Source of the DNA: an uncultured Chloroflexia bacterium
GTDB lineage: Bacteria; Chloroflexota; Ktedonobacteria; Ktedonobacterales; JADMIN01
Assembly: GCA_963718915.1 (NCBI GenBank)
Contig: CAVRAI010000003.1
Coordinates: 840,001-872,000, forward strand
Reading direction: 5' to 3'
DNA length: 32,000 bases
Program-made: the position numbers and the translations under genes
Notes under the pieces: model-generated
The model's database searches: none
What the model was told of the DNA's origin: nothing
The model's input: the letters and a program-made list of their open reading frames with translations, nothing else
In this document: one piece after another, positions 4,480-22,688 of the stretch
Layout of the letters: each line of letters begins with the position of its first letter
Position numbering within the stretch: position 1 is the stretch's first letter

Positions 4480-5457
4480 GTGTCAGAAATGGAAAGAGGT
4501 TGCCTGGTGTCGCATCAGACTGAGGAGATCCCAAAAACTGACCGTCCAGACGCAGGCTCGCAGAAGTCTTTTGGGCCGGAGGTGGCGCAGTTTTTCGTGG
4601 TGAGCCTGTGGGCTTCCACATTCATCGTGACGAAAGCCATGTTTGTTGAGGTGTCGCCACTGGCGTTCGCCTTCGTGCGCTTTGCGCTCATGACAGTCCT
4701 GGCGTTCGGTATCCTCGCGCTACGCAGCCATGGGCGACTCCCGCCTATCCGCCGCGCCGATCTGCTTCTCTTCCTGGCGGCTGGGCTGACGGGATATACA
4801 CTCTATCAGCTCGGTTTCGTGCTTGGGCTCGATCACACGTCGCCGTTTTCCAGTTCGCTGCTGATCGCGATGGTGCCATTCTTCACGATGGTGTTTCTCG
4901 CGGTACGTGGTGAGCGCCTACCGCGGCACGCCTGGCTTGGCCTCGCTGTGGGCCTGGCGGGTGTCGTGATCTTCCTGACGGATAAACTGGGTAGCCCCGG
5001 CTCACTGGTGGGTGACGCGCTCAGCCTCGGCGCGGCGGTCTCGTTCGCGCTCTATGGGCTGGTCAACCGGCCGCTGGTGCGCGCCTACCCACCCGAAGCG
5101 TACACGGCCTACGCCCTTCTCGCCGGGACAATTCCGCTTCTGGTCATTTCGACGCCCGCGGCCCTGGCCCAGAACTGGGGCGCGATCTCGATCTGGGGCT
5201 GGGTTGGCATCATCTACATGGTCGCGTTGCCAGTTTATGTGGCCTACATGCTCTGGAACTGGGCGATTGCGCGGCGTGGCGCGGCGGCGGCCACCAGCTT
5301 CAGTCTGCTGGTACCGATTCTGAGCGGCATCCTCTCCGCATTGCTCTTTGGAGAAGAGTTCGGAATCGTTAAGCTGCTCGGCGCTGCGTGTGTCCTCGCT
5401 GGATTGCTGGTCATCCGCTACCCGGCGAAACCCGCGAATACAGCTAAGGCCAGGTAA
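4480..5457 (+). CDS. EamA/DMT-family transporter
   Basis: About 10 hydrophobic helices in two EamA-like halves (FFVVSLWASTFIVTK..., VYVAYMLWNWAIARRGAAAATSFSLLVPILSG). The N-terminal ~35 aa and exact start are uncertain. Confidence 0.82.
   Translation: MSEMERGCLVSHQTEEIPKTDRPDAGSQKSFGPEVAQFFVVSLWASTFIVTKAMFVEVSPLAFAFVRFALMTVLAFGILALRSHGRLPPIRRADLLLFLAAGLTGYTLYQLGFVLGLDHTSPFSSSLLIAMVPFFTMVFLAVRGERLPRHAWLGLAVGLAGVVIFLTDKLGSPGSLVGDALSLGAAVSFALYGLVNRPLVRAYPPEAYTAYALLAGTIPLLVISTPAALAQNWGAISIWGWVGIIYMVALPVYVAYMLWNWAIARRGAAAATSFSLLVPILSGILSALLFGEEFGIVKLLGAACVLAGLLVIRYPAKPANTAKAR
5375..5440 (+). repeat. direct repeat copy A (functional 3' end of the EamA gene)
   Basis: 62/66 identical to 6835-6900, with a 46-bp perfect run (5386-5431). 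The offset is exactly 1460 bp. Confidence 0.9.
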
Positions 5458-5570
5458 ATTGCCGCTGATTGGCCGCTCTGATAGACGCAGAAGTTCCAGA
5501 GGAGTTAGACAACGGCTTGCGAAGCGTTAGAGGACATCTATGGCACTCTCTTTGTTATGGACGTAAGAGC

Positions 5571-6233
5571 CTACGCCCCAGCCATGGATGTAGACGCGGG
5601 AAACGGAGCGCCGCAAGTTGGGCAAAACTGTGCGTCAGGCAAAGCTACGGTCGCGCACCTCGCGCACACCCGCGGCTTGCGCGACAGCGCCATCCCACAA
5701 TAGGCGCAGAACGCAGCTCCAGCCTGCAAGGGCTTGTGGCAATGGGGGCACTCGCCATCTGTGCCAGGCAGCATATCCAGTGATGCCTCCAACTCCGCTA
5801 TTTTGAGTTTGTGGGCGGGCACGCTGGTGCGCCGTTCGGCGATGGTGTCTTTGACGGCGAACGCCAGGTAGAGCAATGGCAGCGAAAACAAGAGTACCAT
5901 GAAGACCGCGTATACCAGCGTGAGGCCGATGCGCCCTGGCCACGAGAGCGTGGCCCAGGGGACGTTCCCGTGTAGCGTGAGAAAATGACGCCAATCAAGA
6001 GCGAGGATTGTGCTCACGACGCCGAGAAAGACGATGAAGCCTGTGCCATAGAAAAAGTTGGGGTTTAGTGGTGCGATGCCCCATACGACAATCTCCCAAA
6101 ACAGCATGCCCAGGCACAGGAGCGTCAGGGTCCACACACTATATCGGTGCGGTGGATGAGGGGTACGTGCCATTGGTGTCTTCGCCATGTCCGCAGTATT
6201 CACTTGTTGCTGCAATGCAATCACCTCCATCAT
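5571..6233 (-). CDS. membrane protein with C-terminal double zinc-ribbon
   Basis: Four hydrophobic helices followed by CPHCHKPL...FCAYCG and CARCATV...FCPTCG (two CxxC...CxxC ribbons). Start uncertain: MMEVIAL at 6233 was chosen and the ORF extends to 6347. Confidence 0.55.
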   Translation of the reverse strand: MMEVIALQQQVNTADMAKTPMARTPHPPHRYSVWTLTLLCLGMLFWEIVVWGIAPLNPNFFYGTGFIVFLGVVSTILALDWRHFLTLHGNVPWATLSWPGRIGLTLVYAVFMVLLFSLPLLYLAFAVKDTIAERRTSVPAHKLKIAELEASLDMLPGTDGECPHCHKPLQAGAAFCAYCGMALSRKPRVCARCATVALPDAQFCPTCGAPFPASTSMAGA

Positions 6234-6340
6234 CGGAACCCGCTCGTGTCGCTCAGAGGACGGGACAGGACACCAAGCCCACTCTAGAACGGTGCAGAGC
6301 GTACACATGCCTACGGTACTACAGTTCCTAACCGAAACGC

Positions 6341-6532
6341 CTACCACGTCATCTCACCTAGTCCGCTCTCGCCGGATGCGGTCAAACAGCACACTCGCTG
6401 GCTCGCCCTCCGGGTCTTGTGACACGAGGTTGACCTGAGAAGGCGCGCTCCAGGATGCTCTGGCGCAGCCGCTCGGCCCGCCTGTTCGAGGAGGTCGTCA
6501 ATCCTTGTCCGCGCTATGTCTTCGGGCTTCAT
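6341..6532 (-). pseudogene. possible 5' remnant of a restriction-enzyme/helicase-type gene
   Basis: MKPEDIARTRIDDLLEQAGR resembles the N-terminal TRxxIDxLLxxAGW motif of type I/III restriction R subunits. The rest of the ORF is low-complexity and not protein-like. Confidence 0.2.
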
Positions 6533-6834
6533 CTCCTCTTCCCTCGTGGTGGTGATTGTGGGTGTGACGGCGTGCGACAGCGTAAGATTCGGAATAGTTT
6601 CAGTATAGGCGACAGATGGCCGTCTAGCAACCACTCGTTCCGTTAGTCTCATCATAAAGCGGAAGTGGGGGTGAGACTTTGACGAGGCAATCAGGAAGTC
6701 GGGCCCATCAGGCACGATACCATCGCTCCGAAAGGAGACGCACCCATGACGACCAACAATCCTGGTACGCCACCTATGCTATTGACGACGGACACTCTGC
6801 CACTTTAGGTAGGTCGTTGGCGATGTCCAGGTAT

Positions 6835-6900
6835 TGCTCGGCGCGGCGTGTGTCCTCGCTGGATTGCTGGTCATCCGCTACCCGGCGAAACACACGAACA
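6835..6900 (+). repeat. direct repeat copy B (displaced, orphan 3' end of the EamA gene)
   Basis: In the EamA frame it reads LLGAACVLAGLLVIRYPAKHTNMPEAD*, versus LLGAACVLAGLLVIRYPAKPANTAKAR* in the intact gene. No upstream gene body is attached. Confidence 0.88.
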
Positions 6901-6956
6901 TGCCCGAAGCCGATTGAATCGTGCGGTAATTCTCGCTGGCGCACTGCGGGCGCAGC

Positions 6957-6986
6957 TTGACAGTATGGCGGGTGATTGGGTAGAAT
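6957..6986 (+). promoter_or_regulatory. near-consensus sigma70-type promoter for tRNA-Glu
   Basis: TTGACA (6957-6962), 18 nt, TAGAAT (6981-6986), about 34 nt upstream of the tRNA 5' end. Confidence 0.5.
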
Positions 6987-7019
6987 ACAGGGCGCGGTGT
7001 AGCTAACGCCGCGACGCAT

Positions 7020-7096
7020 GGCGCATTCGTCTAGTGGCCCAGGACGCCGCCCTCTCAAGGCGGAGATCACGGGTTCGAATCCCGTATGCGCTACCA
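7020..7096 (+). tRNA. tRNA-Glu (anticodon CUC)
   Basis: Acceptor GGCGCAT/ATGCGCT (G1-U72). D arm GTCT-AGTGGCCCA-GGAC. Anticodon stem CCGCC/GGCGG with loop CTCTCAA (CTC at 7054-7056). T arm ACGGG-TTCGAAT-CCCGT. Encoded CCA at 7094-7096. Strong resemblance to bacterial tRNA-Glu. Confidence 0.92.
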
Positions 7097-7099
7097 AAA

Positions 7100-7122
7100 G
7101 CCCCACCTGCTAACGGTGGGGC
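7100..7122 (+). terminator. hairpin downstream of tRNA-Glu (possible terminator)
   Basis: GCCCCACC (7100-7107), loop TGCTAAC, GGTGGGGC (7115-7122). The downstream T-run is weak. Confidence 0.3.
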
Positions 7123-7267
7123 GCTCTCATTTCCTGAGGGCTGGAGTCTCGCCACCCCTCTCTTTCATCATGGCGTCAATCGAGCAATCTTTCCATCGCC
7201 GCGGCGGCATCCTTCTGTATGCTTGGTGGGACGTGCGCGCGCCTGGCGCTTTGGCGCAGACACGGTA

Positions 7268-7459
7268 CTAGTAGCGGTCGCTGTAGCCTTTGCCGCCATT
7301 TTGATCGGCCTCGGCTGGAGTTACCCACCAGTGGTTCTGGAGGCGCCACGGCTCATTGCGCGCCAGCACACGATAATGCGCCTGGCGCCAGGTGAACGCG
7401 CTCGGCTGACCGTCCGCGGATGTCTCGACTGCTACTGGTATGTCGATGCGCCTGGGCAT
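7268..7459 (-). CDS. hypothetical small protein (63 aa)
   Basis: The ORF lacks low-complexity character (MPRRIDIPVAVETSADGQPSAFTWRQAHYRVLARNEPWRLQNHWW...). No family assigned with confidence. Confidence 0.4.
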   Translation of the reverse strand: MPRRIDIPVAVETSADGQPSAFTWRQAHYRVLARNEPWRLQNHWWVTPAEADQNGGKGYSDRY

Positions 7460-7622
7460 GCTCTCATAACCTCCTGAACACCTCCAGCATGGCGCAGCGC
7501 TAGCTCCTCGACAAGGCGTCTTGATGTGTCACCCGCAGACAAGAGCGGCGATCGACAGGCGCAAAAATGCCCCACCGACGACACGATGTGCCGATGGGAC
7601 GATTGGATCTCGGACTGCTCGA

Positions 7623-7946
7623 TCAATGCTCGTGATCGAAGTGGGCAATGGTGCGCGCTTGCACTTCGCCAAGGGATGGCTCGGCCATTACCCACACTTC
7701 GCGGTGCTGTTGGCGGGCGTACGTCTCGGCAAGCTGGAGCGCACGTGCGCGATCTTCCGTCACGTAGGTGCTGGTTGAGTTCCAGTCAGACACGCCCAGC
7801 TCCGCTGCTTCCGCTGGGCGGGTGACGTACTCGCCACCAGGCGACCCCTTAGGGGGGTAGGTGGTCTCGCCGATGCGAACGGTGTAGAGCGTGCGGTCAG
7901 ACTGCGGCCACTTTGGCTCCTTCGGCATACTGTCAGCCATGTGCAA
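7623..7946 (-). CDS. hypothetical protein (107 aa)
   Basis: ORF with balanced composition, on the same strand as 7268-7459. No recognisable motif. Confidence 0.45.
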   Translation of the reverse strand: MHMADSMPKEPKWPQSDRTLYTVRIGETTYPPKGSPGGEYVTRPAEAAELGVSDWNSTSTYVTEDRARALQLAETYARQQHREVWVMAEPSLGEVQARTIAHFDHEH

Positions 7947-8490
7947 CCCCTTTCACGGGTTGTTGAGCGTGTCGTAGAACAGCGGGTTCGTTACATGTAA
8001 CGAACTAGCTTCCCTCGCGTTACTCTGCGTCATCATCTCCCATCCCCTCCATCGGCTCAGGGAGCGCAGCGAAGACACACCAGTGGGGCGACGCGCTGCC
8101 ACGCTGGCCACCGCCTCAATGCAAGCGGAGTGCCTGCGCCACGGGGCGGACCCTGGCAGCATACCACCATTGCAAGCATCATCATGCATTGTGCCGCATG
8201 AGGGCGCTGCTCAATCGGGAGTATTGTGTCTTCCATAGCCCGGAAGCCACCGAGGGTCGCAGGGTCGGTAGCAGGGTCGGTGGCATGGCAAGCAGCAACG
8301 TACAGCGCGGGCTGAAGCGATTGCCGCCAAATCTGCGTGAGGTGATGGATCATGTAGCGGTCGGCGTCGAGCAGGTGCACGAGGGCACGCTGATGCCTGG
8401 GCAACTCTCGGCCATGGCGGCTGGCGCTACGGCGCTCGTCAAGTTGGTTGAGGCTGCTGTTCTCGCGCCGGGGATTGAGGCGTTGCGCCT

Positions 8491-8548
8491 CCAGGACGCC
8501 GCCCTCTCAAGGCGGAGATCACGGGTTCGAATCCTATATGCGCTACCA
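8491..8548 (+). pseudogene. orphan 3' portion of tRNA-Glu (att-like direct repeat of 7039-7096)
   Basis: 56/58 identical to 7039-7096, with a 44-bp perfect run. The two mismatches (CCCGT to CCTAT) break the T stem. There is no 5' half. Confidence 0.88.
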
Positions 8549-8556
8549 CAAATAGT

Positions 8557-8586
8557 CCTGACCATCATGGTTGGGGCTTTTGTTTT
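8557..8586 (+). terminator. rho-independent terminator-like hairpin after the tRNA-Glu remnant
   Basis: CCTGACC (8557-8563), loop ATCAT, GGTTGGG (8569-8575; 7 bp including two G-U), then GCTTTTGTTTT. Confidence 0.45.
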
Positions 8587-8620
8587 ACCAATGCCGACCC
8601 ATCGCCTGGAGCTGGTTCGA

Positions 8621-8680
8621 TCATGGTGAAAGGCTGACGGTGGGGCGCTCAGGAGGTGGGTAGCGACCGCAGCTCAACCC
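8621..8680. repeat. direct repeat, left copy (displaced 3' end of the oxidoreductase gene)
   Basis: Matches 17495-17558. Perfect 19-mer cggtggggcgctcaggagg (8638-8656 vs 17516-17534) plus 12-mer tagcgaccgcag. The minus strand reads ...VELRSLPTS* (stop at 8649-8651), versus ...IDLRSLHAS* in the intact gene. Confidence 0.8.
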
Positions 8681-8819
8681 CGAAGACCTCATCAGTCAGG
8701 ACGAACTGCTCGAAACGCAGAAGTACGACGAGTTCATTCCTCTGCATCTTCTCCGCAAGGGATTTGCGTCAGACAGACGCGATGTGGAGGGGGTGAAGCG
8801 CCTTGTCGCTACGTGGTAA
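8664..8819 (+). pseudogene. possible orphan C-terminal gene fragment (51 codons, no start codon)
   Basis: Open frame RPQLNPEDLISQDELLETQKYDEFIPLHLLRKGFASDRRDVEGVKRLVATW* begins directly after a stop at the repeat boundary. It has no ATG/GTG/TTG start. Confidence 0.25.
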
Positions 8820-9120
8820 AGCGCACAGCATCACAGATGTACGTAGAAGCTGGGGTGCAAGATTGTTAGTTTGATAGGAGTGCATCGTGTAGCCGGATTG
8901 TCCTGATTGCTGCATTTCCGCTTTTCGCCATCGTTAGGGTATTCATAGTGGTGTGCATTTCCCCCAAAGAGTTGCGCGTTGTCGTACGCACGTATACCCA
9001 CTTTTCGTGCTCAGTCAGGCTCTGCCGTGATACGTGCGCCATGCAAAAAGCGCGATAGGAAATTAGCATTCCGCGAGCATTCCTGCTGAGGAAACAGCAC
9101 CAGCAGAACTGGAGGGCAGC

Positions 9121-10371
9121 ATGGCGTCATTCACTGATCTCGTCGCCAGACATATCCAGCAGCGGCAACAGGAATTTCTGGCTACACTCTCTCCAACGCC
9201 ACACAATCACACGGAAACAATCCTGGCTGAGAGCGTGCAACGATTCTGGCATCCGCTTCCGCAAGACACCGAGGATACACAGACGGAGGCGCTTCCCTCC
9301 AGTTCGGCTGCGGTTGATGGCTCGCGGGCTACGCGGGCGCTGAACGCAGGTGCTGATTGGGTCATCGCGCAGGCATTGCTCCTGGGGACGGGTGGTCTTT
9401 GCCTCACCGCAGCGGATACTGTTCTGCTCAGGGGCGACGCCGAGCGCCCAGCAGTAGATCGCTGTGCGGCCTTGTTGATGCGTTCTCTGGAACTCGACCT
9501 AGCGCTCAAATATGCTCGGAGCGGTGAAGGTGACCTGCTCTTGCTCGATGGTTCCCTTTATGCCGAGTTGCCACATTTGCTCTATCCCCTGGCTGTGCGT
9601 GGTCAGGAACAATTGCCACTGCAGGTGTTACAACGCTACCTCGACCTCTTTGAGTGCTGCCAGGAACGTGGCATAACGCTTCTAGGGGTATCCAAGAGTG
9701 CGCGGTCGAAAGCGCTTGCGCAGGCTATACTTCTCACAAGCCACACAGACACGGTTGAGGGAGATGCAAGCGCTGATGTGGCGCATGTTTCGTTACCGCA
9801 GGCGCCACGACGCGTCGCTCATGACTTCGATGAGATGATGCAACAGGCGCCAACCGATGCAGAGTTACTCCACCGTTGGACATCAGGCGCTGGGTTCAGC
9901 GATCCCATCCTGCTCGGCACCGCATCGTTTGGGCATCGACGCGAGCGAGTTCAGACAGATCCACGGCTACTCGCCGAACAGTTCCGTGGAGGTTCACTGT
10001 CTGAGACCGAGTGTCGCGCCATCTTGGAGCGATTGCGTACTGCTCCCGCCATCGGCACGTTCTACATCCGTCTTGCCCCTGGCGACGATGTGCTTCGGAT
10101 TGACGCGCCAGCCGACATCTATGGAAGAGCAGACAACCATCTGCTCGACGTCCCCCACGAGATGTTGCCATACCAGGATGCAGAGGCTCTTGTCAGATAT
10201 CTGCGTCGCGGATATGGTGGCCCCAATGTCTACAACGCCGCGCTCTATATCGTGGATCGCGAAGTCCGTCTGCACGCACAGACGGTCGATCACCTGTATC
10301 TTTCGCTCTTGCGACGGCAGCTTGACATTCCGATTCGATTTGACCGCTCGACGCTGCGATTTGTTCAGTAG
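9121..10371 (+). CDS. nurA: NurA-like 5'-3' nuclease
   Basis: NurA-type motifs in order: AVDGSRA, SLELDLAL, LLLLDGSLY, LLGVSKSARSK, YNAALYIVDREVR. GGAGGG lies 5 nt upstream of the ATG. Confidence 0.75.
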   Translation: MASFTDLVARHIQQRQQEFLATLSPTPHNHTETILAESVQRFWHPLPQDTEDTQTEALPSSSAAVDGSRATRALNAGADWVIAQALLLGTGGLCLTAADTVLLRGDAERPAVDRCAALLMRSLELDLALKYARSGEGDLLLLDGSLYAELPHLLYPLAVRGQEQLPLQVLQRYLDLFECCQERGITLLGVSKSARSKALAQAILLTSHTDTVEGDASADVAHVSLPQAPRRVAHDFDEMMQQAPTDAELLHRWTSGAGFSDPILLGTASFGHRRERVQTDPRLLAEQFRGGSLSETECRAILERLRTAPAIGTFYIRLAPGDDVLRIDAPADIYGRADNHLLDVPHEMLPYQDAEALVRYLRRGYGGPNVYNAALYIVDREVRLHAQTVDHLYLSLLRRQLDIPIRFDRSTLRFVQ

Positions 10372-10392
10372 CAGCTCAGCAGCAGCTCAGCA
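10371..10392. repeat. 11-bp x2 tandem repeat at the nurA stop
   Basis: GCAGCTCAGCA GCAGCTCAGCA, starting in the last base of the TAG stop codon. Confidence 0.85.
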
Positions 10393-10412
10393 GAGACGCT
10401 TGAGAACGCCCC

Positions 10413-10451
10413 GATGGAGGACAGTGATGGAGGACAGTGATGGAGGACAGT
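10413..10451. repeat. 13-bp x3 tandem repeat, each unit carrying GGAGGA plus ATG
   Basis: GATGGAGGACAGT x3, followed by a partial fourth unit (ATGGAG). ATGs at 10414, 10427 and 10440 fall in three different frames. Confidence 0.9.
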
Positions 10452-12155
10452 ATGGAGCGCCAACTATCTTCTCTCTATGGTCTGGAAGCAGGATTCATTG
10501 TAGGTGAGACCAATCCACTGGAGTTCACCTTCGTCAGCAGTCGCGAGATGCTCCCTCCCCGTCTGGAATATTTGATTGTTCCGGGCGTCGAAGAGCGTAC
10601 TGCGTTATCTGGTACAGAAGCACAACCAAAACGAGTGGATGTACTAGCACAGGTGACTGAGGTAGGCATCGACTCCGCCGTTCTCTCCGAACGCCTGACG
10701 TATGACGAGGCGCTGGCAATCCTGCGAGGAGCCTACGCGCCACCGCCTAAGATGTACGGACGCGCGCGTGTCATTGGCTATCTCGCGGGCCAGACAGTGC
10801 GCGTACCCCGTTGCGCGGCGAGTCCAGGGAGCACTGTCTATGTCGCGCCGGATGCCTTTCTGCAACGTTTCTTCAGCCAAGAGATCAATGCGGGCATCGA
10901 CCTGGGAACGCTCATCAATCGCCCTGAAGTGCCTGTTCTCCTTGACCCAAACGGCCTGCGTCGTCATCTGGCCATCATTGCGCAGACGGGGGCAGGCAAA
11001 TCGTATCTGGCGGGAAAACTCTTCGAGAGCCTCCTCCAATTGGGAGCGACCATTTTCGTCTTTGATCCTAACTCTGACTACGTTCAGTTGCGAAAGGTGG
11101 CCAGACAAGAGCAGCAGCCGTATGACGCCGCAGAGAGAACCGCATTTGCCGATGACATTGCGATCTACCGAATTCCAGGGATCCAGGGTAGACGTTTTCC
11201 CGATGCGATAATAGGGCCAACCAGCGATTTTACCGTCCGTTTCTCCGATCTCGACGCAGATGAAATCAGTGTACTGGTTGGCATATCCGAACGCGCAACC
11301 AACTTGCGTGGAGCCGTCAACCGGGCATGCGCCCAACTGAGGCAACGCAACATTGACTATCGTCCGGCGGAACTGATCGCAGAACTACAGGGCCGCAACA
11401 ACGAACCTCCGACCGAGGAAGAAGACAAATCCGCAGATGACAATCCGCTTGGGCAGGAAGATAGGCAGACGGCATACAAGGCTGCGCGCTATATCGAGCG
11501 ATTGAAAGACCTCGCGGTGTGGGGGTATCAGGACGTGGATATCGAGCCGTTGCTAGCCCCACAGCATCTGACCGTGTTCGACCTCGCTGGAGCAGATAAG
11601 ATGGTGGCCGCCTACGCCGCCGAACGCACCCTGCGTGAGATTTGGCAGCGCGCACTCAGGGGGAAGTTGAATCACCCCGTCTTCATTGTGCTGGAAGAGG
11701 CGCACAACCTCATCCCAGCGGCTGGCAATACCCGCGCCAGTCGTATCATCAATACCATCGCTGCCGAGGGCCGAAAGTTTCGCGTCTTCCTGACACTCAT
11801 CACCCAGAGACCCAGTAAGGTCAATCCAGATACACTCTCGCAATGCGGCAGCCAGATTATTATGCAACTCACCAATCCCGATGACCAGCGCGCTGTGCAG
11901 AAAGCATCAGAGGCTATCTCTGCTGAACTGCTAGCGGATCTTCCGGGATTGAATAAAGGCGAGGCTATTGTACTCGGCCAGTTGACACGCATCCCGGTGA
12001 TGCTCTCTGTCTCTGGGCGAGCATCAGCCGAAGGTGGAAGCGATATAGATGTCGTGCAGGAACTCAAACGCGCGGCACTCGCCAGGGGTACTCAACGCGC
12101 GGCCCAGGAGATGCGCGGGCGAGGGGCAGTCGCCCGTCAACGTGAGGAATGGTGA
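10437..12155 (+). CDS. herA: HerA/FtsK-class hexameric ATPase (DUF87/HerA-like)
   Basis: N-terminal barrel-like region. Walker A IIAQTGAGKSY (about 10981-11010). Walker B VFIVLEEAHNLIP. LITQRPSKVNPDTLSQCGSQIIMQLTNPDD. In-frame starts at GTG 10437, ATG 10440 and ATG 10452. Confidence 0.88.
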   Translation: MMEDSMERQLSSLYGLEAGFIVGETNPLEFTFVSSREMLPPRLEYLIVPGVEERTALSGTEAQPKRVDVLAQVTEVGIDSAVLSERLTYDEALAILRGAYAPPPKMYGRARVIGYLAGQTVRVPRCAASPGSTVYVAPDAFLQRFFSQEINAGIDLGTLINRPEVPVLLDPNGLRRHLAIIAQTGAGKSYLAGKLFESLLQLGATIFVFDPNSDYVQLRKVARQEQQPYDAAERTAFADDIAIYRIPGIQGRRFPDAIIGPTSDFTVRFSDLDADEISVLVGISERATNLRGAVNRACAQLRQRNIDYRPAELIAELQGRNNEPPTEEEDKSADDNPLGQEDRQTAYKAARYIERLKDLAVWGYQDVDIEPLLAPQHLTVFDLAGADKMVAAYAAERTLREIWQRALRGKLNHPVFIVLEEAHNLIPAAGNTRASRIINTIAAEGRKFRVFLTLITQRPSKVNPDTLSQCGSQIIMQLTNPDDQRAVQKASEAISAELLADLPGLNKGEAIVLGQLTRIPVMLSVSGRASAEGGSDIDVVQELKRAALARGTQRAAQEMRGRGAVARQREEW

Positions 12156-12217
12156 CGGTTAGGAGTCGACCGAGCGCTGGCGAGATGACTTGTTTGTGAT
12201 GAGAGGGATGGAGCAGG

Positions 12218-13204
12218 ATGGGTGATCTGGATAGCCGCGAAAATCCTGGTGAGACTCGGCAACGTGAGCGGGAACATGAAGATATGTGGACGAATGATAT
12301 TTTGCGGGTGGTGGTGACGGCCGACAACCATCTTTCTGCATTTACACCTAAACTCTCTCCACAACGACTGAGCGAACGTCGGCAACGGCTGCGCAGGGCA
12401 TTCGCGCGGGTGGTGGATGAGGCTATTGCCCGGCAGGCCCATCTGTTCATCCAGGCAGGCGATCTTTTCGACAGCATCGAGCCACGCAATCTGGAGCGCG
12501 AATTCGTCGCCGCACAGCTTGCGCGCCTGCATTCGGCTGGTATTCAGACATTCGGCATCAGTGGCAATCATGATACGCCACGCCAGCGTACTGAGCATGG
12601 TGGTTTCGCTCCTCAGGGTATCTATGCCGAACTTGGGGGTATTCACTACTTCCCTGAATCGGACTGCATCAAGCCCGTTCTGGTTGAGGCGGCACGTATG
12701 CGCGTAGCGGTGGCAGGTCTGAGTTGTAATCCAGGTGCGGCGCCCGGAGGCGATCCGCTCGATGATGTGGTGACAGAAGACCCGGATGGCAACCTGGCGC
12801 GTGCAGATGTTGGTATCCTGATACTGCATGCGGCTATCGAGGGTCATGGCTTTCCCAGCGAAGATGAGTTATTCGTCCGACGAGCGAGCATCGAGCGTAT
12901 CACAGGCTTCAAGCTGATCCTTGCGGGACATGTTCATGCCTACGCGCGATTCGACGTAGCCAACAAGTCCGTGGTAGTGTGTGGCCCTACGGCGCGTATG
13001 AGCTTTGGCGAGGCGGAGGACAAAACGGGCTTTGCTTATCTGGAGCTTCGCCACGATGGACGCTTCCATTCCGAGCATGTTGCCATTCCCTCTCAGCCAC
13101 GGCATATTGTGACAATCCAAACGTCCGAACTCTGGCCCCAACAACAGCAGCAGATTCTGACACCATCAGATCGCATGACGATCACCGACTGCCGACGCTG
13201 CTGA
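12218..13204 (+). CDS. Mre11/SbcD-family metallophosphoesterase nuclease domain (ends prematurely relative to family architecture)
   Basis: All phosphoesterase motifs are present: VVTADNHL, QAGDLFD, GISGNHD, ILILHAAIEG, LAGHVHAY. GGAG lies 5 nt upstream of ATG 12218. Stop at 13202-13204 after a Q-rich stretch. Confidence 0.85.
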   Translation: MGDLDSRENPGETRQREREHEDMWTNDILRVVVTADNHLSAFTPKLSPQRLSERRQRLRRAFARVVDEAIARQAHLFIQAGDLFDSIEPRNLEREFVAAQLARLHSAGIQTFGISGNHDTPRQRTEHGGFAPQGIYAELGGIHYFPESDCIKPVLVEAARMRVAVAGLSCNPGAAPGGDPLDDVVTEDPDGNLARADVGILILHAAIEGHGFPSEDELFVRRASIERITGFKLILAGHVHAYARFDVANKSVVVCGPTARMSFGEAEDKTGFAYLELRHDGRFHSEHVAIPSQPRHIVTIQTSELWPQQQQQILTPSDRMTITDCRRC

Positions 13205-13358
13205 TGTATCTGGCATATCTGCCGCAGTAGCGCCATCCGATGCGCCATCAGCAACCTATCCGCCGGATGCTGTCCAGGACATCACAGCGCTTCCAGGCTC
13301 TGATTCTACACGTCCTGCCGCAGACACTGCGGAAGCTGAGGATACCGTACACCGAGCA

Positions 13359-13724
13359 ATGCAGGTGATTCTCGATCGGATCAGGCCGTACTGTACCCCT
13401 GACGCGATGGTACGGCTCTGCCTCACAGGTCCGATTTCTCGCGAGCGCTACCGCGCACTTGATCTGCGCAAAGTTTGGCTTATCGCGCAACATCAGGCGT
13501 TCTCGTTTGAACTCGATGAGTCTGGCCTCTTTCTGGTCGAGCAGGGATCGCAGGAGCAGGTGGTTCGTGGTGAGCGCATCGCGCCGCGTGAGATGCTGGA
13601 GCAGGTCATGGGAGCCTGGATGGATCGTGCCAAGACAACTGCTGAACGCACGCTTTTGGCAAAGACTCGCGAACGAGTTCTCACATTATACGAGCAGTTA
13701 ACGGGGGGGGAAGCGACGCGATGA
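13359..13724 (+). CDS. Mre11 C-terminal (capping/Rad50-binding-like) domain encoded as a separate ORF in another frame
   Basis: VILDRIRPYCTPDAMVRLCLTGPISRERYRALDL... resembles the region that follows the nuclease core in single-chain Mre11/SbcD homologues. This frame is open from 13179. Its stop overlaps the next gene's start (ATGA at 13721-13724). Confidence 0.55.
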   Translation: MQVILDRIRPYCTPDAMVRLCLTGPISRERYRALDLRKVWLIAQHQAFSFELDESGLFLVEQGSQEQVVRGERIAPREMLEQVMGAWMDRAKTTAERTLLAKTRERVLTLYEQLTGGEATR

Positions 13725-16700
13725 TTACGCTCCGACATCTGCATGTGGAGAACTTTAAGGGGCTGGATAGCGTAGACCTCTCCTTCCCTGAACAGGGCAG
13801 CATCCTCATCGAAGGCCATAACGAAGCAGGAAAGTCAACCCTTTTCGAGGCAGTCTATGTCGCACTCTATGGTGAGCCTTTAGTCGGCGAGGACAATCGC
13901 CCACGTCTTGAGGAGGTCATCAAGCATGGTCAGCCGCAGGCGCTGGTCGAATTGACCTTCGCCGTCAGCACCGAGCAACTCACGATACGCCGTGTCTTGA
14001 GACGGGAACAACCTCAACAGGCGCGGCTTACTATCCGCCAACCCAATGGTCATGAGGAGACTGTCAATCGTCCCACCGCCGTCAATCGACGCATCCTGCA
14101 AGAGTTGAACAATTTGGACGGCGATAATCTGCGCAACTCGTGCTTCGTCGAGCAGAAGGAACTGGGACGGCTGGAGGACATGAATCCCAGCAGGCGTGAG
14201 CAGGCAATCCAAAGCCTCCTGGGACTTGAGCGATTGACAAAGCTCTCAGACCAGTTCAAGTTCAAGCGCGAGCAGGAACGCGAGCTAGATCATGCACGGC
14301 GTCTACTCGAACTGGCCTACGCGCAACAGGATGTACGGGTGCTGGTGGTGGAAGAGCAGGCGGCTGCTGAACGTCTCGATGCCACGAGGATTGCCGCGCA
14401 ACTCACAGAATGCGCTGCGCTTGAAGAACAGCAGACGGCTCTCCGGGAGCAGTCGCAGGCAAATGTATTCCGTGAGACCGATCTACGCGGGCGGCTGGAG
14501 TATGCTGGCCGCATACGCGGCCAGGTTTCCAGGTGCAATGTGGTGCAGCAGCAACTGGAAAGAGCGACTGCTCAAAGGGAAACTGTAGAGCGGTTGAAGG
14601 GGAAGCTGGCAGAGATGGATGCCATCGAGCGCCAGGCAATACCCGAAACGAGAACACAACTCGACCGAACCTTGACGGCGCTCAAGTTGGTGGTTGACGC
14701 CGAAGAAAAGCGCATGGCAGTGCATGATGCTACTGGCATTGAGCAAGAAGCGCTACGTGCCGTTGCAGAGCTTGAACGGGCTAAAGAGGTCGTGCGTCAA
14801 CGGGCAGAAACGCTGGATATATCACGTGCGCGAGCGAATCAACACCGCAAGGAAGCAGCTTCGTCGCGCGAACAAAACCAGCGACAACTCGCGATACTGA
14901 GCGCTCGACATAATCAGTTGAGCCATATGCTTGAGTTGGTTATGGCATGGGAGCATAAACGCGACGCATTAGAGGCAGTGCGTCAGCAGATTCGTGATGC
15001 AGAGAAGAATGCGCAAAGGCTCCTGGAGCTTCGCGCTACCCTACTGCAGCGAGAAGAGACAGCCCACCAAGCGGTAGGTAGAGCGGAACAAGCGGAACGT
15101 AAGCGTCAACAGGCGGAGTCGCACCGGCGACAATCAGAGGGATATGAAGCGCTGCACGAGTGGATACGCCTGAAGGAGGTTGAGGCCTCGCTCTCCGGCT
15201 TTGCGCAGGATCGCACCACAATGGAAGCGGAGCGCCAACAGGCCACCGCTGCGTATGCGAGCGCCCAGGCGCGAGCGCGCGGGTTATTGTACCAAACAGC
15301 GGCCACTATGCTGCTGGCAATGATTGCTCTCGTAGCCGGAGCTATTCTATCCCCCTGGCTATTGGTCATTGGAGCTATCCTTGGAGTAGTGGCTATCTTC
15401 CGTGGTGGCGGCTATTGGCGTTCTCGCGTTGCGACGACAGCGGGTAAACAGGCAGTCGAGAGCGTGGCGAACAAGCTTCGCGAGCTCACAATGCGCTATC
15501 AGGCGGCGGTGCATGCTGGGGGTGATCCTGCCCAGCTCGGTCAGCGTGAGCGTGCCCTTACCGCAGCAGGATTCGCAGTCCCCTCGTCGCTTGATGCTGC
15601 GCGTAATCTACTGGCCAGGCTGTCTGCGGAAGGGATCATAGACTATCAGCGTGCAAGGGTGTCAGCAGATGAAGCGGTGACGACACTGGCCCGATTGAAG
15701 GCCGAGGCAGAGCGAGCACAAGGCGATGTCGATCAGACCAGGGTGGCGCTGCACAACCTTGAAGAGCAGGGTGATGCGTCTGTAATGCTGCGTGAACTCC
15801 ACATACGTGAGACCCAGGAGAGCAAAGCAGCCGAAGCTGCTGAGGCAACGGCTCGCGAGGCTACGAAAGGGGAATTGTCATGGCCGACGAATCAAGCTCA
15901 GATCGACATGGCGGCTGCGGCATGTCAGGCGGAGCAACAAACCATTCAGCGCACAATGGCTGATGCGGAAGCCCAGACAAGGCGCATAGAGCATGACGAT
16001 GAAGATGCTATCGCGCAAGCACACCAAGTACTTAGAACCGCTGAGGACGCTGTTGCGGTATTGCAGATGCCTGATCCTCAGGCAATGCTTACGGATGCGC
16101 AGGCAAATCTTGTCCATGCCGAAGAACTCGCGCGCGCAGCTGAAACGCAGTCGCAGTTGGCTGTTCGGGGCATGGGATTATCGCCCGAACGGACGGCAGT
16201 CGAGGCGGCGCGTGGGCGAGTAGAGGAGCGTCTGCGGAACCTGGAAAGCCAACTGACAACCCGGCCAGCGGTTGAAACTGCGTTCACTAACGCACAAACG
16301 ACATATGCAGACATGCTGCAGAAAGCGAGCAATGCGCTCCTGGCAATCGTGGAATCAGCCCGTTCACTTGCAATCGCATCGCTTCAAGGCGTCGCGGCGC
16401 TTGAAGATCAGGCCGCGCGTGAGCGTCCGTTGGCCGCCAGGCTAGACGAGGTGTGTGCTGCCCTCGTATCTGCGCTCACCGAGCTTCATGAGGCAGATGC
16501 ACAGACTGAGCTAGAGCGCCTCCTGCATGAGAAGGGGACACTGAACCAGCGCCTACAGTCTATGGAGAGTCAACTTGCCTCTATTGAGGGGGACATCCAG
16601 AGTATCTTGGCGGCGCGTCACCTCCCTACGCCTACCCAATATACTGCTACGGCATTGGCTGCTGTGTGGCCGTTGATCGGAACAGCCTCGGCTCACGAGC

Positions 16701-17440
16701 TTGATCGTATGCAACTGGAACTTGAGCAAGTTCGCAACCGCCACTTCGCAGCGCGTGATCGGGAGCATCGCCTGACCGAAATACTTGGTGATCCAGGGGT
16801 GGAACTCGAGGTCGAGGCGTGTGGCCATCGCGTCCAAGAACTCGATGAGGAGCGAGCCATCTGCCAGCACGCCATCGGCATAATCCAGGAGACTCGTGAT
16901 CGCATTGCTCGGCAGGTTCTGCCGACCACAGAACGCAATATGGAATTGTTGCTTCGTGAACTTACCATGCACCGCTACTGGAGCGTTCGATTGACACCAC
17001 CTGCCAGCGAAGAGAGGCAGCTCAACCAGCTTGATTACCGCATTCGTGTATGGGATCAGACAGCCCAGCGCTATGTTGCCAAGAATCTCTTCTCTGGAGG
17101 TACACGAGATCAATGTTCCCTGGCATTGCGGCTCGCCTTTGCTCTGGCGACTCTCCCACAGGAGCTAGGCATTGCGCCTGGTTTCATTTTTCTGGATGAG
17201 CCATTGAGCGCCTTCGATGCCCAGCGTGCGCAAGCACTTGTGAATCTGCTCACGACAGGAATCATTGCTCAGCAGTTCGCCCAGGTCGTGGTCATCTCGC
17301 ATCAGCATGCGTTTGATCGCAACGCATTTCAGTATCATATTCGTATGGATAGTGGCCAAGTCGTCGAGAGCGATCTCCCAGTGATGCCCAGCCACTCTTT
17401 GCAACGCACGCCTATGAAAGCCTCTAGTGCGCGTGCGTGA
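13721..17440 (+). CDS. Rad50/SbcC-like SMC-type ATPase with central hydrophobic hairpin
   Basis: Walker A GHNEAGKSTLFEAV. Q-loop FVEQKELG. More than 800 aa of heptad-like E/Q/R/A-rich sequence. Signature FSGGTRDQCSLALRLA. Walker B FIFLDEPLSAFD. H-loop VVISHQH. Hydrophobic block TAATMLLAMIALVAGAILSPWLLVIGAILGVVAIF at residues ~526-560. Confidence 0.9.
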   Translation: MITLRHLHVENFKGLDSVDLSFPEQGSILIEGHNEAGKSTLFEAVYVALYGEPLVGEDNRPRLEEVIKHGQPQALVELTFAVSTEQLTIRRVLRREQPQQARLTIRQPNGHEETVNRPTAVNRRILQELNNLDGDNLRNSCFVEQKELGRLEDMNPSRREQAIQSLLGLERLTKLSDQFKFKREQERELDHARRLLELAYAQQDVRVLVVEEQAAAERLDATRIAAQLTECAALEEQQTALREQSQANVFRETDLRGRLEYAGRIRGQVSRCNVVQQQLERATAQRETVERLKGKLAEMDAIERQAIPETRTQLDRTLTALKLVVDAEEKRMAVHDATGIEQEALRAVAELERAKEVVRQRAETLDISRARANQHRKEAASSREQNQRQLAILSARHNQLSHMLELVMAWEHKRDALEAVRQQIRDAEKNAQRLLELRATLLQREETAHQAVGRAEQAERKRQQAESHRRQSEGYEALHEWIRLKEVEASLSGFAQDRTTMEAERQQATAAYASAQARARGLLYQTAATMLLAMIALVAGAILSPWLLVIGAILGVVAIFRGGGYWRSRVATTAGKQAVESVANKLRELTMRYQAAVHAGGDPAQLGQRERALTAAGFAVPSSLDAARNLLARLSAEGIIDYQRARVSADEAVTTLARLKAEAERAQGDVDQTRVALHNLEEQGDASVMLRELHIRETQESKAAEAAEATAREATKGELSWPTNQAQIDMAAAACQAEQQTIQRTMADAEAQTRRIEHDDEDAIAQAHQVLRTAEDAVAVLQMPDPQAMLTDAQANLVHAEELARAAETQSQLAVRGMGLSPERTAVEAARGRVEERLRNLESQLTTRPAVETAFTNAQTTYADMLQKASNALLAIVESARSLAIASLQGVAALEDQAARERPLAARLDEVCAALVSALTELHEADAQTELERLLHEKGTLNQRLQSMESQLASIEGDIQSILAARHLPTPTQYTATALAAVWPLIGTASAHELDRMQLELEQVRNRHFAARDREHRLTEILGDPGVELEVEACGHRVQELDEERAICQHAIGIIQETRDRIARQVLPTTERNMELLLRELTMHRYWSVRLTPPASEERQLNQLDYRIRVWDQTAQRYVAKNLFSGGTRDQCSLALRLAFALATLPQELGIAPGFIFLDEPLSAFDAQRAQALVNLLTTGIIAQQFAQVVVISHQHAFDRNAFQYHIRMDSGQVVESDLPVMPSHSLQRTPMKASSARA

Positions 17441-17494
17441 TGCCGTCGTATCAGTGTTGCGCCCTTCCCTACCCATCGTCTGTAGCCGATACGG

Positions 17495-17558
17495 TCATGG
17501 TGGCGGAAGGCTACGCGGTGGGGCGCTCAGGAGGCGTGTAGCGACCGCAGGTCAATCC
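17495..17558. repeat. direct repeat, right copy (functional 3' end of the oxidoreductase gene plus flank)
   Basis: See 8621-8680. Includes the stop codon at 17527-17529. Confidence 0.8.
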
Positions 17559-18786
17559 GCTCGTCGGCCAGGTCGGCGTCCGAGACGCGAACGCGCGCGC
17601 GAATCAGTTCCTGGCATGCGTGTAGCTCGGAGTCGGCCTCGATTTCTGGATCGCCGCCACGGTTCAGCCCGAACACCGCCTGGATGATGCCCTGCGTCAG
17701 GTAGAAGACCAGGAACTTCCGGCTCTCGAAGGTCCCACGAAGCACAATCTTTTCCCAGGTTCGGGCGAACCCTACGTACTCGATGTTGTGCTCAAATTGA
17801 TCCGACCAGAAGCTGTAGATATAGTCATAGGCCTGGGGATCGCCCAGCACGGCGCGGGCGACGGCGCGGCCCTGGCGTTCGGCGTTGTTGTAGTGCTCCA
17901 CCCGCAGACGCCCGAAGACCGGATGCTGGATATTGGCCACATCGCCCGCCGCGAAGACATCGGGCATGTTCGTCCGGCACTGCGCGTCGACGAGAATGCC
18001 GTTATTCAGGGCAATCGCACTCCCCGTGAGCGCATCCACGTCTGGCGCGATGCCGATGCCCACGACCACCAGATCGCATTCCAGCCGCGCGCCTGTCCCG
18101 GTCAGCACGCGCTCCACCCGGCCGTTGCCCTCGATGCCGGTCACGTGCTCCTGTGTGACCAGTCTCACCCCGTGCTCACGATGAATCGCCGCCAGCACCG
18201 AAGCGACCTCAGGGCCAAGCACTTTGACGAGCGGCGCTGCCCCAGGGAGCACGACGGTCACGTCGAGACCCATCTGCCGGAGCGAGGCCGCAACCTCGGC
18301 GCCGATGAATCCCATGCCGACGACGACCACTCGCGCGCCGGGATGGGCCGCCTGACGAATCGCCTCGCACTCCGCGACCGTGCGCAGCTGATAGACGCCT
18401 GGCAAGGACGCTCCTGGCACGTCAAAACGCTGATTCTTGCCACCTGTGCAGAGGATCAGCCTGTCATAGCGCATGGCATCGCCGCTCGCAAGGTGGAGCT
18501 GCCTGAGGTCGGTGTCGATGCGTTCCACGCTGACCCCGGTGCGGAACTCGATATCGTGCGCGCCGTACCAGTCCGCCGGCCTGACATACCAGGCGCTGAG
18601 ATCTTCCTCGCCGCGCAGATAGGTCTTGGAGAGCGGTGGTCGGCCAAATGGGATGCCCGGCTCCCTGCCCAGCAGGACGATGCGGCCACGCCACCCCTCT
18701 TCGCGCAGAGTTACCGCTGCGTTGCCACCCGCCAGACCCGCGCCGAGAATCACGATGGTCTGCTCACTCCTTGCGTCTGCGTTCAT
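17527..18786 (-). CDS. FAD-dependent pyridine nucleotide-disulfide oxidoreductase (ferredoxin-reductase type)
   Basis: TIVILGAGLAGG (FAD GxGxxG), VVVVGMGFIGAEVA (NAD(P) GxGxxG), AAGDVA, and a C-terminal reductase domain. ATG at 18786 is preceded by AAAGGAG and is preferred over the ORF-track start at 18885. Confidence 0.85.
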   Translation of the reverse strand: MNADARSEQTIVILGAGLAGGNAAVTLREEGWRGRIVLLGREPGIPFGRPPLSKTYLRGEEDLSAWYVRPADWYGAHDIEFRTGVSVERIDTDLRQLHLASGDAMRYDRLILCTGGKNQRFDVPGASLPGVYQLRTVAECEAIRQAAHPGARVVVVGMGFIGAEVAASLRQMGLDVTVVLPGAAPLVKVLGPEVASVLAAIHREHGVRLVTQEHVTGIEGNGRVERVLTGTGARLECDLVVVGIGIAPDVDALTGSAIALNNGILVDAQCRTNMPDVFAAGDVANIQHPVFGRLRVEHYNNAERQGRAVARAVLGDPQAYDYIYSFWSDQFEHNIEYVGFARTWEKIVLRGTFESRKFLVFYLTQGIIQAVFGLNRGGDPEIEADSELHACQELIRARVRVSDADLADERIDLRSLHAS

Positions 18787-18979
18787 GGCGGCGCTCCTTT
18801 CGAGTCGAGAAAACGAATGGTCTGGTGTCTGCATCGCGCGAGACTCTCCTTCACTATTCCACGTTGCATGCCACGGATACTCCACAGCAAAGGAGTCTCC
18901 CCCGCACGCATGCTATACTCTACACAGGAAATGGAGAACAGCCTGACAACGGCCTGAAGGCGCCCGAAGTGAGTGTGAT

Positions 18980-19804: not shown

Positions 19805-19886
19805 TCATGCCTTCAGTCATCCTCGCAATGCGTCAACCGGCCTCAAATGCACCAATGATTATTCGGGAAAATTGGGCGTTGACAAC

Positions 19887-19915
19887 TTCACACTGGACGA
19901 AGGCTCCGCTATAGA
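19887..19915 (+). promoter_or_regulatory. candidate promoter upstream of the vWA gene
   Basis: TTCACA (19887-19892), 17 nt, TATAGA (19910-19915). Downstream leader contains an 8-bp inverted repeat, CAGGGTTG/CAACCCTG. Pattern match only. Confidence 0.3.
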
Positions 19916-20039
19916 TACATAATCCACAGTGCAGGGTTGCCCACAATCAGCGGTTTGCCTGGAAGAAAAACAACCCTGGCGGTCAAACCAGCGTAGAGAA
20001 TACCAAACGGCCTTGGATATCAGGGTAAGAGGGTCGCTT

Positions 20040-22616: not shown

Positions 22617-22688
22617 CTGCCAGTTTGCGCGATAATCGCCTCGCTGGCAAACGGCCAGGCGAGGAGCAGCTTATAGATATGTAGACAA

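Follow-up and report, generated by a model that had tools for sequence, protein, structure and literature searches.

Where foreign DNA is bracketed by short duplicates of gene ends, these are routinely taken for attachment (att) sites of integrative elements that have since been lost. The decay of integrative and conjugative or integrative and mobilizable elements (ICEs and IMEs) into cis-mobilizable elements (CIMEs) and the accretion of such remnants in tandem are well described; they leave side-by-side segments with direct 3'-end repeats and no genes for integration or transfer, and in a CIME the attL and attR sites of one target stay functional (PMC5704250). In Dehalococcoides (Chloroflexota), tandem islands downstream of the small RNA gene ssrA, some of them without integration modules, are flanked by 20-bp 3'-end repeats, many at the same boundary, beside a conserved serine-recombinase module (PMC3146451). 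In tRNA-linked island hotspots (additive flexible genomic islands), a tRNA and core genes bound content that differs between relatives, and the inserted DNA is of lower GC content with defense and phage-type cargo. A route with homology on one side only, homology-facilitated illegitimate recombination with joints of 3-10 bp, is documented in transformable bacteria according to PMC6382021, which cites de Vries & Wackernagel (2002) and Prudhomme et al. (2002). Here, we analyze a 32,000-nucleotide stretch of an uncultured Chloroflexia bacterium (contig CAVRAI010000003.1, positions 840,001 to 872,000; called the window), in which an EamA-family transporter gene, a tRNA-Glu(CTC) gene and an oxidoreductase gene each have their 3' end duplicated around foreign DNA. 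The three duplications are best read as scars of repeated gain and trimming of island fragments, that is, as ordinary genome plasticity and a known kind of feature.

The window shares parts of its anatomy with each of these systems. As in tRNA-linked hotspots, a tRNA and core genes bound content that differs between relatives, and the inserted DNA has a lower GC content and carries defense and phage-type genes; no integrase is present, however, and two of the three repeat boundaries are apparently illegitimate joints to truncated genes. With CIMEs and tandemly accreted ICEs or IMEs it has in common the side-by-side segments, the direct 3'-end repeats and the lack of integration or transfer genes, but here three genes are duplicated instead of one, the inner borders cut genes and there is no sign of mobility (PMC5704250). 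Dehalococcoides belongs to the same phylum and likewise has tandem islands with 3'-end repeats downstream of a small RNA gene, some without integration modules, whereas its short repeats, their multiplicity at one boundary and the conserved recombinase module have no counterpart in the window (PMC3146451). The microhomology joints (CCAGG and TCAA.CC) and truncated donor genes fit homology-facilitated illegitimate recombination with its one-sided homology in a conserved gene, which as presented in PMC6382021 comes from laboratory transformation of a few competent species, while the present case is read from the sequence of an uncultured member of the Chloroflexota in which no homologous breakpoint was located.

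Duplicated gene ends and the DNA between them

Three direct-repeat pairs, far above chance expectation, enclose 1.4, 1.4 and 8.8 kb of inserted DNA. All three duplications are built alike, with foreign DNA standing between an intact anchor gene and a partial copy of the end of that gene. Repeat 1 (5375-5438 and 6835-6898, 64 nt, 95% identity) is the 3' end of the EamA gene and goes on to the EamA stop codon at lower identity (69 matches in 83 nt, the last 19 nt contributing just 8). Repeat 2 (7039-7099 and 8491-8551, 61 nt, 95%) is tRNA-Glu(CTC) from position 20 to its end. Repeat 3 (8638-8680 and 17516-17558, 43 nt, 91%) comprises the last 32 nt and the downstream flank of the oxidoreductase gene, which lies on the minus strand, and extends leftwards with indels to 8597 and 17470 (84 and 88 nt; 70 matches, 14 mismatches and 4 gap columns). 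Target-gene 3' ends hence stand as direct repeats at both borders, in three pairs of 61-88 nt with 80-95% identity. A preliminary description of this DNA had reported 3'-end duplications on three adjacent genes with no recombinase left; the repeat pairs are real, two of them with longer extents than first given, and domain searches detected no integrase, transposase or relaxase domain in any sizeable open reading frame (ORF) of the window. Its account of the insert contents was also correct: insert 1 encodes a membrane protein with a zinc ribbon, insert 2 has small ORFs, and insert 3 carries the genes for NurA, HerA, a metallophosphatase and an SMC/Rad50-like protein together with one small ORF. 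Inverted repeats were not found at the insert ends and the duplications are 61-88 nt long and non-identical, so that the inserts do not qualify as transposons or insertion sequences (IS). In the flanks of the relatives, no second copy of any of the three repeats was found. The nearest relatives are uncultured Chloroflexota labeled Ktedonobacterales or Chloroflexia, all of them metagenome-assembled genomes; related loci are referred to by number, in particular L001 (DATBIB010000150), L026 (CAVQGK010000017), L034 (ERZ25039538 contig_8666) and L086 (a 28.9-kb Logan contig from SRR23961945).

Insert 2 (7100-8490, 1391 nt) appears as a mosaic of island fragments without relation to insert 1. It separates the intact tRNA-Glu(CTC) gene (7020-7096, plus strand; ARAGORN, Rfam tRNA score 64.9 bits) from a displaced partial tRNA-Glu with two T-stem substitutions (8491-8551, plus strand), which is joined to a truncated gene at CCAGG. 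This gene (8189-8490, plus strand) is of a mobile-element family, lacks about its last 21 codons at the 3' end and reads on into the tRNA copy. It has 167 homologues, the closest of about 115-136 amino acids (aa), and a host-like codon composition; the similarity ends at residue 100, i.e. at nt 8490, exactly at the start of the tRNA copy, and the aligned homologues extend by up to about 21 further residues. In a three-way alignment, the window changes from mobile-element gene to tRNA inside a shared pentamer, CCAGG (5 nt), at 8491. Because the similarity ends at the junction and the switch falls within CCAGG, we take the repeat-2 boundary for an illegitimate joint to the truncated gene. The closest intact homologue, in L093, stands among genes for Bro-N, two HTH_17 proteins, a DnaB/AAA_25 helicase and an Mrr_cat/AAA_31 (ParA-type) fusion, which together form the replication module of a mobile element.

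Insert 3 (8681-17469, about 8.8 kb) corresponds to an internal stretch of the island carried by L086. Window positions 8674-17413 align to L086 and L087, contigs that were found through their 95%-identical HerA, at 91% identity over 8780 nt, and the L086 sequence runs on at both sides, with SngA, SngB and SngC upstream of the operon and a convergent DruE1 downstream of it. The Shango system of L086 is complete (SngA; SngB, E 5e-187; SngC, E 3e-253, gene at 5353-7641), and the window holds only a remnant of the Shango helicase gene sngC, its last 47 codons and stop (8674-8819, plus strand, within an ORF at 8664-8819; L086 homology begins at 8674). Since the left edge lies inside sngC and the L086 sequence continues beyond it, insert 3 comes from within a larger island and is not a cassette with ends of its own. 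At the left joint (8674-8680), TCAA.CC and a flanking CAG are common to the oxidoreductase end (CAGGTCAATCC) and sngC (CAGTCAAGCC); at the right end, L086 homology fades about 30 nt past the Rad50 stop codon. The GC content of the insert is 0.54-0.60 versus 0.60-0.70 in the flanks, and that of third codon positions (GC3) 0.56-0.62 versus 0.66-0.80.

The displaced copy of repeat 3 (8597-8680) consists of 52 nt of the oxidoreductase 3' flank and the last 32 nt of the gene, and its counterpart (17470-17558) is joined to the intact gene (17527-18786, minus strand), which encodes an FAD-dependent ferredoxin-reductase-type oxidoreductase of 419 aa (Pfam Pyr_redox_2 and Reductase_C; 100% identical to P0001 over 419 aa). 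Inside these copies lie the second and third occurrences of a 13-mer, CGGTGGGGCGCTC, which is found exactly three times in the window (7114, 8638 and 17516) versus 0.15 expected. Both repeat-3 copies share states that are absent in relatives, namely a CTA Leu codon, AAGGCT and a 22-nt ACCCATCG... extension; these shared derived states indicate an origin in one genome or in two very close lineages.

Insert 1 (5439-6834, 1396 nt) is a remnant common to L026 and absent from L001, as alignments to both relatives indicate. It follows an intact EamA-family transporter gene whose start codon is uncertain (4480-5457, plus strand; Pfam EamA, E 3.8e-37) and which has orthologues at 77-88% aa identity in L001, L002 and L026, with conserved upstream synteny. 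The copy of repeat 1 inside this gene (5375-5457, plus strand) is made of the 64-nt block at 5375-5438 and a divergent 19-nt tail with the stop codon ('type II'), and the displaced partial EamA 3' end (6835-6917, plus strand) has a different, 'type I' tail and runs on into the native spacer and the tRNA promoter. In L001, about 85% identical at the nucleotide level, position 5438 of the window is joined directly to 6835 and EamA is followed by the conserved promoter and tRNA-Glu, which makes L001 a true empty site for insert 1. The displaced copy is collinear with L001 10250-10513 at 86%, and its tail matches that of L001 at 16 of 19 positions. The tail of the intact gene matches L026 and L002 at 14 of 19 positions and the window's own displaced copy at only 8 of 19. 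Type I is the tail in L001 and type II that in L026 and L002, where the short downstream flank of L002 resembles the empty type, and the two EamA tails of the window represent two natural alleles. In L026, window positions 5026-6234 and 6362-6705 align at 88% and 77%, and insert 1 stands directly after EamA and leads straight into the tRNA promoter without a second EamA end, an arrangement that the preliminary description had itself named as contrary to serial site-specific insertion. Insert 1 of L026 holds further phage-type genes (T5orf172/MUG113 and Bro-N).

The remaining features of inserts 1 and 2 are small. Insert 1 carries as cargo a membrane protein with a C-terminal double zinc ribbon (5571-6347, minus strand; Pfam Zn_Ribbon_1 and DZR; 84% aa identity in L026) and a degenerate ORF of 124 aa (6341-6715, minus strand), probably a pseudogene, which has no family match and is matched in L026 only as three frame-shifted pieces. 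In insert 2, a conserved gene of 105-107 aa with no assigned function (7623-7946, minus strand) has homologues at 90% and 85% aa identity and a host-like GC3 of 0.73, and a small DUF6504-like ORF (7268-7459, minus strand; Pfam DUF6504, E 3.7e-5, at the curated cutoff) has a 46%-identical paralogue in L088. A module of 580 nt (7616-8194) is 88% identical to L088, where it occurs in another context with no tRNA near. In the window, the DUF6504-like ORF is found downstream of the 107-aa gene, while its counterpart in L088 (9043-9219) is upstream of the homologue of that gene, and the order of these genes suggests that the small-gene module was rearranged between the two genomes. No phage or provirus relatives of the insert genes or of the tRNA att segment came up in scans of viral contigs, and PHROGs yielded nothing meaningful. 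Inserts 1 and 2 are nearly equal in length (1396 versus 1391 nt, with repeat spacings of 1460 and 1452) and have no detectable similarity; a common origin as copies of one miniature element was rejected, as neither blastn nor tblastx nor global alignment against shuffles gave any similarity, and their similar size is probably a coincidence.

The tRNA promoter and the terminator that the preliminary description had placed here are both present. A sigma-70-like promoter (TTGACA, 18 nt, TAGAAT; 11 of 12 positions) lies at 6957-6986 on the plus strand and is conserved in L001 and L026. Terminator-like hairpins follow on the same strand after the intact tRNA (7100-7122, with 4 further nt to 7126; fold -17.7 kcal/mol, z -3.6) and, with a T-run, after the partial copy (8554-8578; -15.8 kcal/mol, z -2.5).

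The flanks of the anchor genes in relatives

The sequence after tRNA-Glu differs in L001, L026, L086 and at both window sites, each with its own terminator hairpin. In L001, tRNA-Glu is followed by an HTH_17 (excisionase-type) ORF, in L026 by IS elements and a large serine recombinase, and in L086, whose contig starts with the last 30 nt of tRNA-Glu, by a defense island. The L026 genes lie at 15407-20443, 2-7 kb downstream of tRNA-Glu, and encode a full 729-aa serine recombinase (3.3 kb from tRNA-Glu) and two DDE transposases. EamA itself is disrupted in L026 (8840-10459), where codons 54-171 are replaced by about 1 kb that encodes, on the opposite strand, the C-terminal part of a large serine recombinase. 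Downstream of the oxidoreductase, four different neighbors occur in five relatives with conserved upstream synteny. The stretches downstream of the tRNA in L001, L026 and L086 have no homology to one another, and neither do those downstream of the oxidoreductase in L034, L035, L083 and L084. Together, these comparisons are best read as a hypervariable flexible-genome region that has EamA and tRNA-Glu as conserved anchors at one end and the oxidoreductase at the opposite end, and in which related lineages carry different island DNA.

A compact ancestral locus of EamA, tRNA-Glu and oxidoreductase had been proposed by removing the inserts from the window. Its left half exists, with EamA followed by tRNA-Glu in L001, but in no sampled relative is tRNA-Glu found beside the oxidoreductase or within 10 kb of it, and empty sites for inserts 2 and 3 were not found; the only support for the right half comes from the window's own segment 8491-8680. 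A search of Logan data for the oxidoreductase copy of the L086 organism returned homologues from other samples with the usual polysaccharide-deacetylase neighbor and no link to the island.

Several further observations concern the anchors. The 26-35 nt after the oxidoreductase stop codon (window 17492-17526) are conserved in L034, L035 and L083 despite different next genes, and the homology ends at a nearly identical point in all three. We considered this flank as a structured RNA and discarded the idea, as it folds no better than shuffled sequences and has no Rfam match. To the right of the oxidoreductase, a conserved block at 18980-28762 encodes a HAD hydrolase, a large VWA_2 protein, a Tubulin_2-family protein and an 831-aa protein without family match. 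Between the oxidoreductase and the VWA gene, L035 and L084 have a guanylate-cyclase/AAA_16 protein of 1067-1069 aa, the window has the HAD gene only, and the P0020 contig has both. Tandem repeats of 10-12 nt, TGA(C/T)ACCAAC(CC), occur 75-270 nt after tRNA-Glu in L026 (13430-13469) and L086 (245-273) and about 100-130 nt past the oxidoreductase stop codon in L084 (11359-11376) and L085 (7623-7652). All copies have the same absolute orientation, L085 and L086 share 27 nt at 93%, and the motif is absent near the window repeats.

Possible origins of the duplications

The explanation we favor, still tentatively, is that the duplications are scars of homology-facilitated illegitimate recombination between related lineages of different island content. 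Donor DNA of a related lineage would recombine homologously in a conserved anchor gene, and the non-homologous tail of the donor would be joined at a few matching bases inside the last 30-90 nt of the resident gene; the outcome would be one complete gene, a fragment of the donor island and a leftover gene end. Such a mechanism needs no recombinase, and none is therefore expected. The alignments show the inserts to be pieces of larger islands or elements, with two of the three inner junctions truncating genes at microhomologies, and show that relatives have either an empty site or the same insert without duplication. Inserts 2 and 3 also lack discrete element ends, since homologous DNA in L086, L088 and L093 goes past their ends. 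The layout expected of a donor, foreign DNA after the anchor without duplication, is seen in L026 both for insert 1 and for the hairpin after tRNA-Glu, and a homologous crossover within the anchor would be compatible with the two tail alleles of EamA. We favor this mechanism because it agrees with inserts that are fragments, with the lack of a duplication in L026 and with the presence of two EamA alleles; the order of events, the crossover in the anchor gene and a like origin of insert 1 are inferred.

A number of points speak against recombination of this kind. Repeats of att-like length (about 60-90 nt) at gene 3' ends are the classic attL/attR anatomy, and partial tRNA copies beside islands are usually products of integrases. 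We know of no natural transformation or other route for DNA from relatives in these organisms. At the inner joint of insert 1, neither microhomology nor a truncated gene could be demonstrated, and sliding-window identity revealed no recombination breakpoint in EamA or the genes upstream of it, L001, L002 and L026 being equidistant throughout. The donor arrangement predicted for insert 3, in which Rad50 lies directly against the oxidoreductase flank, did not turn up; the gene next to Rad50 in L086 is DruE1. Finally, TGA(C/T)ACCAAC could be an arm-type recombinase site (or else an operator), and as such a site it would mean that integrases act at both anchors in this clade.

These points lead to the strongest alternative, which we consider possible, if less probable: the repeats would be decayed att sites of integrase-bearing elements that entered EamA, tRNA-Glu and the oxidoreductase site-specifically at their 3' ends, and later deletions at microhomologies, each with one endpoint inside the displaced att copy, would have removed the integrase modules and left CIME-like remnants. 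The anatomy and length of all three repeats suit this view, as does the hairpin after every tRNA copy, as if elements rebuild the end of their target gene. In the relatives, the phage-type genes within insert 1 and the large serine recombinase and IS elements past tRNA-Glu in L026, the excisionase-type ORF right after tRNA-Glu in L001 and the tandem TGA(C/T)ACCAAC repeats near both anchors point the same way, and CIME decay and accretion (PMC5704250) and the Dehalococcoides ssrA islands (PMC3146451) provide precedents. However, two independent deletions would be required, each ending within a short att copy, and the window contains no remnant of an integrase. The only close relative of insert 3 starts at the 3' end of tRNA-Glu and not by the oxidoreductase, and there SngA and SngB lie to the left of sngC with no att site. 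Neither L001 nor L026 has a second tRNA or EamA copy within 7-10 kb, and the EamA tail that would have been brought by an element is also the native allele of L002, apparently an empty site.

An origin of the third duplication within one genome is unlikely. An island of L086 type would once have stood between tRNA-Glu and the oxidoreductase, and a tandem duplication or template switch from sngC to the oxidoreductase end would have copied the NurA-Rad50 segment with its flank before the original island was lost. The derived states shared by both repeat-3 copies and the microhomology at the joint agree with this, and the L086 contig begins at the 3' end of tRNA-Glu, a point that lies only about 0.1 kb from the displaced oxidoreductase flank in the window. 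Yet further steps would be needed (excision of the first copy, a deletion between Rad50 and the flank, and renewed insertion at the tRNA), the repeat-3 copies are just 80% identical with indels, and repeats 1 and 2 would stay unexplained. Slightly less probable still is a more far-reaching view, in which one island family with tandem TGA(C/T)ACCAAC repeats near its ends uses tRNA-Glu and the oxidoreductase 3' end as att sites in this clade and shuttles a composite defense island, whose five-gene operon between Shango and Druantia would be a mobile anti-phage or anti-plasmid module and not housekeeping repair; if so, the window would be a stripped-down survivor of that island.

We regard as very improbable the view of the preliminary description that three intact integrase-less cassettes were inserted site-specifically and mobilized in trans, with a 13-17-mer as part of their common recombination site. 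It could draw on the three repeat pairs, the excess of the 13-mer and the lack of a recombinase in the window, and the motif does occur just after the intact tRNA and at both junctions of the large insert, in three exact 13-mer copies; nor is it a frequent genome-wide word, which would have made its occurrences trivial. Against it, inserts 2 and 3 end in truncated genes and are thus fragments, and inserts 1 and 2 are unrelated in sequence. Moreover, the 13-mer is present in 8 of 92 related loci, each time only directly after the oxidoreductase stop codon, from which it follows that the copies at 8638 and 17516 belong to repeat 3 by descent. The copy at 7114-7126 is the 3' arm of the terminator hairpin of the intact tRNA plus 4 nt; the homologous hairpin of L026 reads TGTGGGGCCTC, a degenerate form without the exact 13-mer, and after tRNA-Glu in L001 and L086 the 13-mer is absent. 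A shared recombination site is thereby contradicted, the motif being conserved oxidoreductase flank at two sites and a hairpin arm at the third, while the other suggestion made for it, a relic of the ancestral intergenic region, fits those two sites in the form of an oxidoreductase-flank relic but not the copy at 7114. The 18-mer at 7109-7126 (GCTAACGGTGGGGCGCTC) matches 8633-8650 at 17 of 18 positions, which is unlikely by chance, and the L026 hairpin is far less similar; the match may stem from short-patch conversion by the copy 1.5 kb off, or it may be a relic or due to chance. What survives of repeated site-specific insertion is a hotspot of foreign DNA with an empty insert-1 site in L001, not three discrete cassettes. 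An assembly artefact, in which a metagenome assembly would have strung together strain variants of a hypervariable locus by way of the sequence they share, hardly deserves credence either. The window is probably metagenome-assembled like its nearest relatives, and the tRNA is where the Logan contigs L086 and L087 break (at 30 and 28 nt), which shows that assembly graphs branch in this region. Yet the two copies of each repeat are 5-20% different and are not collapsed identical repeats, every junction would need a chimeric joint at unique sequence, the junction of the EamA end with insert 1 is independently present in L026, and the recorded length of the source contig is 910 kb.

The NurA-HerA-Mre11-Rad50 operon and the meaning of the locus

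Insert 3 encodes NurA, HerA, Mre11-type and Rad50-type proteins together, all four assigned by Pfam, in an operon that is conserved in 45 loci and common among related metagenome contigs, where the aa identity is 50-76%. On the plus strand follow the genes for the NurA nuclease (9121-10371; Pfam NurA, E 9e-18), the HerA ATPase/helicase (10437-12155; Pfam DUF87/HerA, E 6e-32; closest homologues at 95% and 90%, then at most 77%), an Mre11-like metallophosphatase (12218-13204; Pfam Metallophos, E 2.8e-13; syntenic in at least 40 loci), a conserved small protein of 121 aa (13359-13724; no Pfam, PHROG or PADLOC match) and a Rad50/SbcC-like SMC ATPase (13721-17440; Pfam AAA_23, SMC_N and SbcC_Walker_B). 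The same four families form one operon in the archaeal-type end-resection system (PMC3326311; for bacterial NurA-HerA see PMC9960219); the window differs in its gene order (nurA-herA-mre11-small ORF-rad50), in the additional conserved gene for a 121-aa protein, in its bacterial host and in that the operon came within an island fragment. The 121-aa ORF is kept between Mre11 and Rad50 in most of the 45 related loci (32-57% aa identity) and, judged by this conservation, looks like an undescribed fifth component of the bacterial operon.

The closest relative of the operon (L086 590-20973) lies between a complete Shango system and DruE1 (Druantia) on the contig that starts with the tRNA-Glu 3' end. 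With SngA, SngB, SngC and DruE1 around the NurA-Rad50 operon, L086 resembles described Shango and Druantia islands (10.1101/2022.05.11.491447; PMC10250203), whereas the window keeps only 47 codons of sngC and not one Druantia gene and hence has neither system. A constant association of the operon with defense genes was considered and did not hold, the neighborhoods being mixed: defense-type neighbors include PNP_UDP_1/NB-ARC and TIR in L040, BrxL in L077 and PIN in L045, and other loci have LigA, isocitrate lyase/MFS or an ISL3 transposase. Direct repeats of 33-46 nt that flank the operon in L045, L062 and L063 were set aside as well, since they belong to a dispersed multi-copy element. This repeat of 30-46 nt (core GGAACCGACGGGCATCGA) has several copies around the operon in lower-GC, Ktedonobacteria-like contigs (in L063 at 6203-6266, 6511-6540, 17199-17234 and 21044-21089, with equivalents in L062 and L045) and resembles a repetitive extragenic palindromic (REP) or miniature inverted-repeat transposable element (MITE).

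For specialists in genome plasticity, nothing at this locus is surprising, and it is of use mainly as a caution. At least two of the three repeats end at microhomology joints to truncated genes and for that reason cannot pass for intact att sites; they may never have been att sites at all. The locus shows the break-up and partial retention of a defense or repair island (Shango, NurA-HerA-Mre11-Rad50 and Druantia) in an uncultured soil lineage of the Chloroflexota, and it marks out tRNA-Glu(CTC) and the 3' end of the oxidoreductase gene as limits of flexible genome content in this clade.

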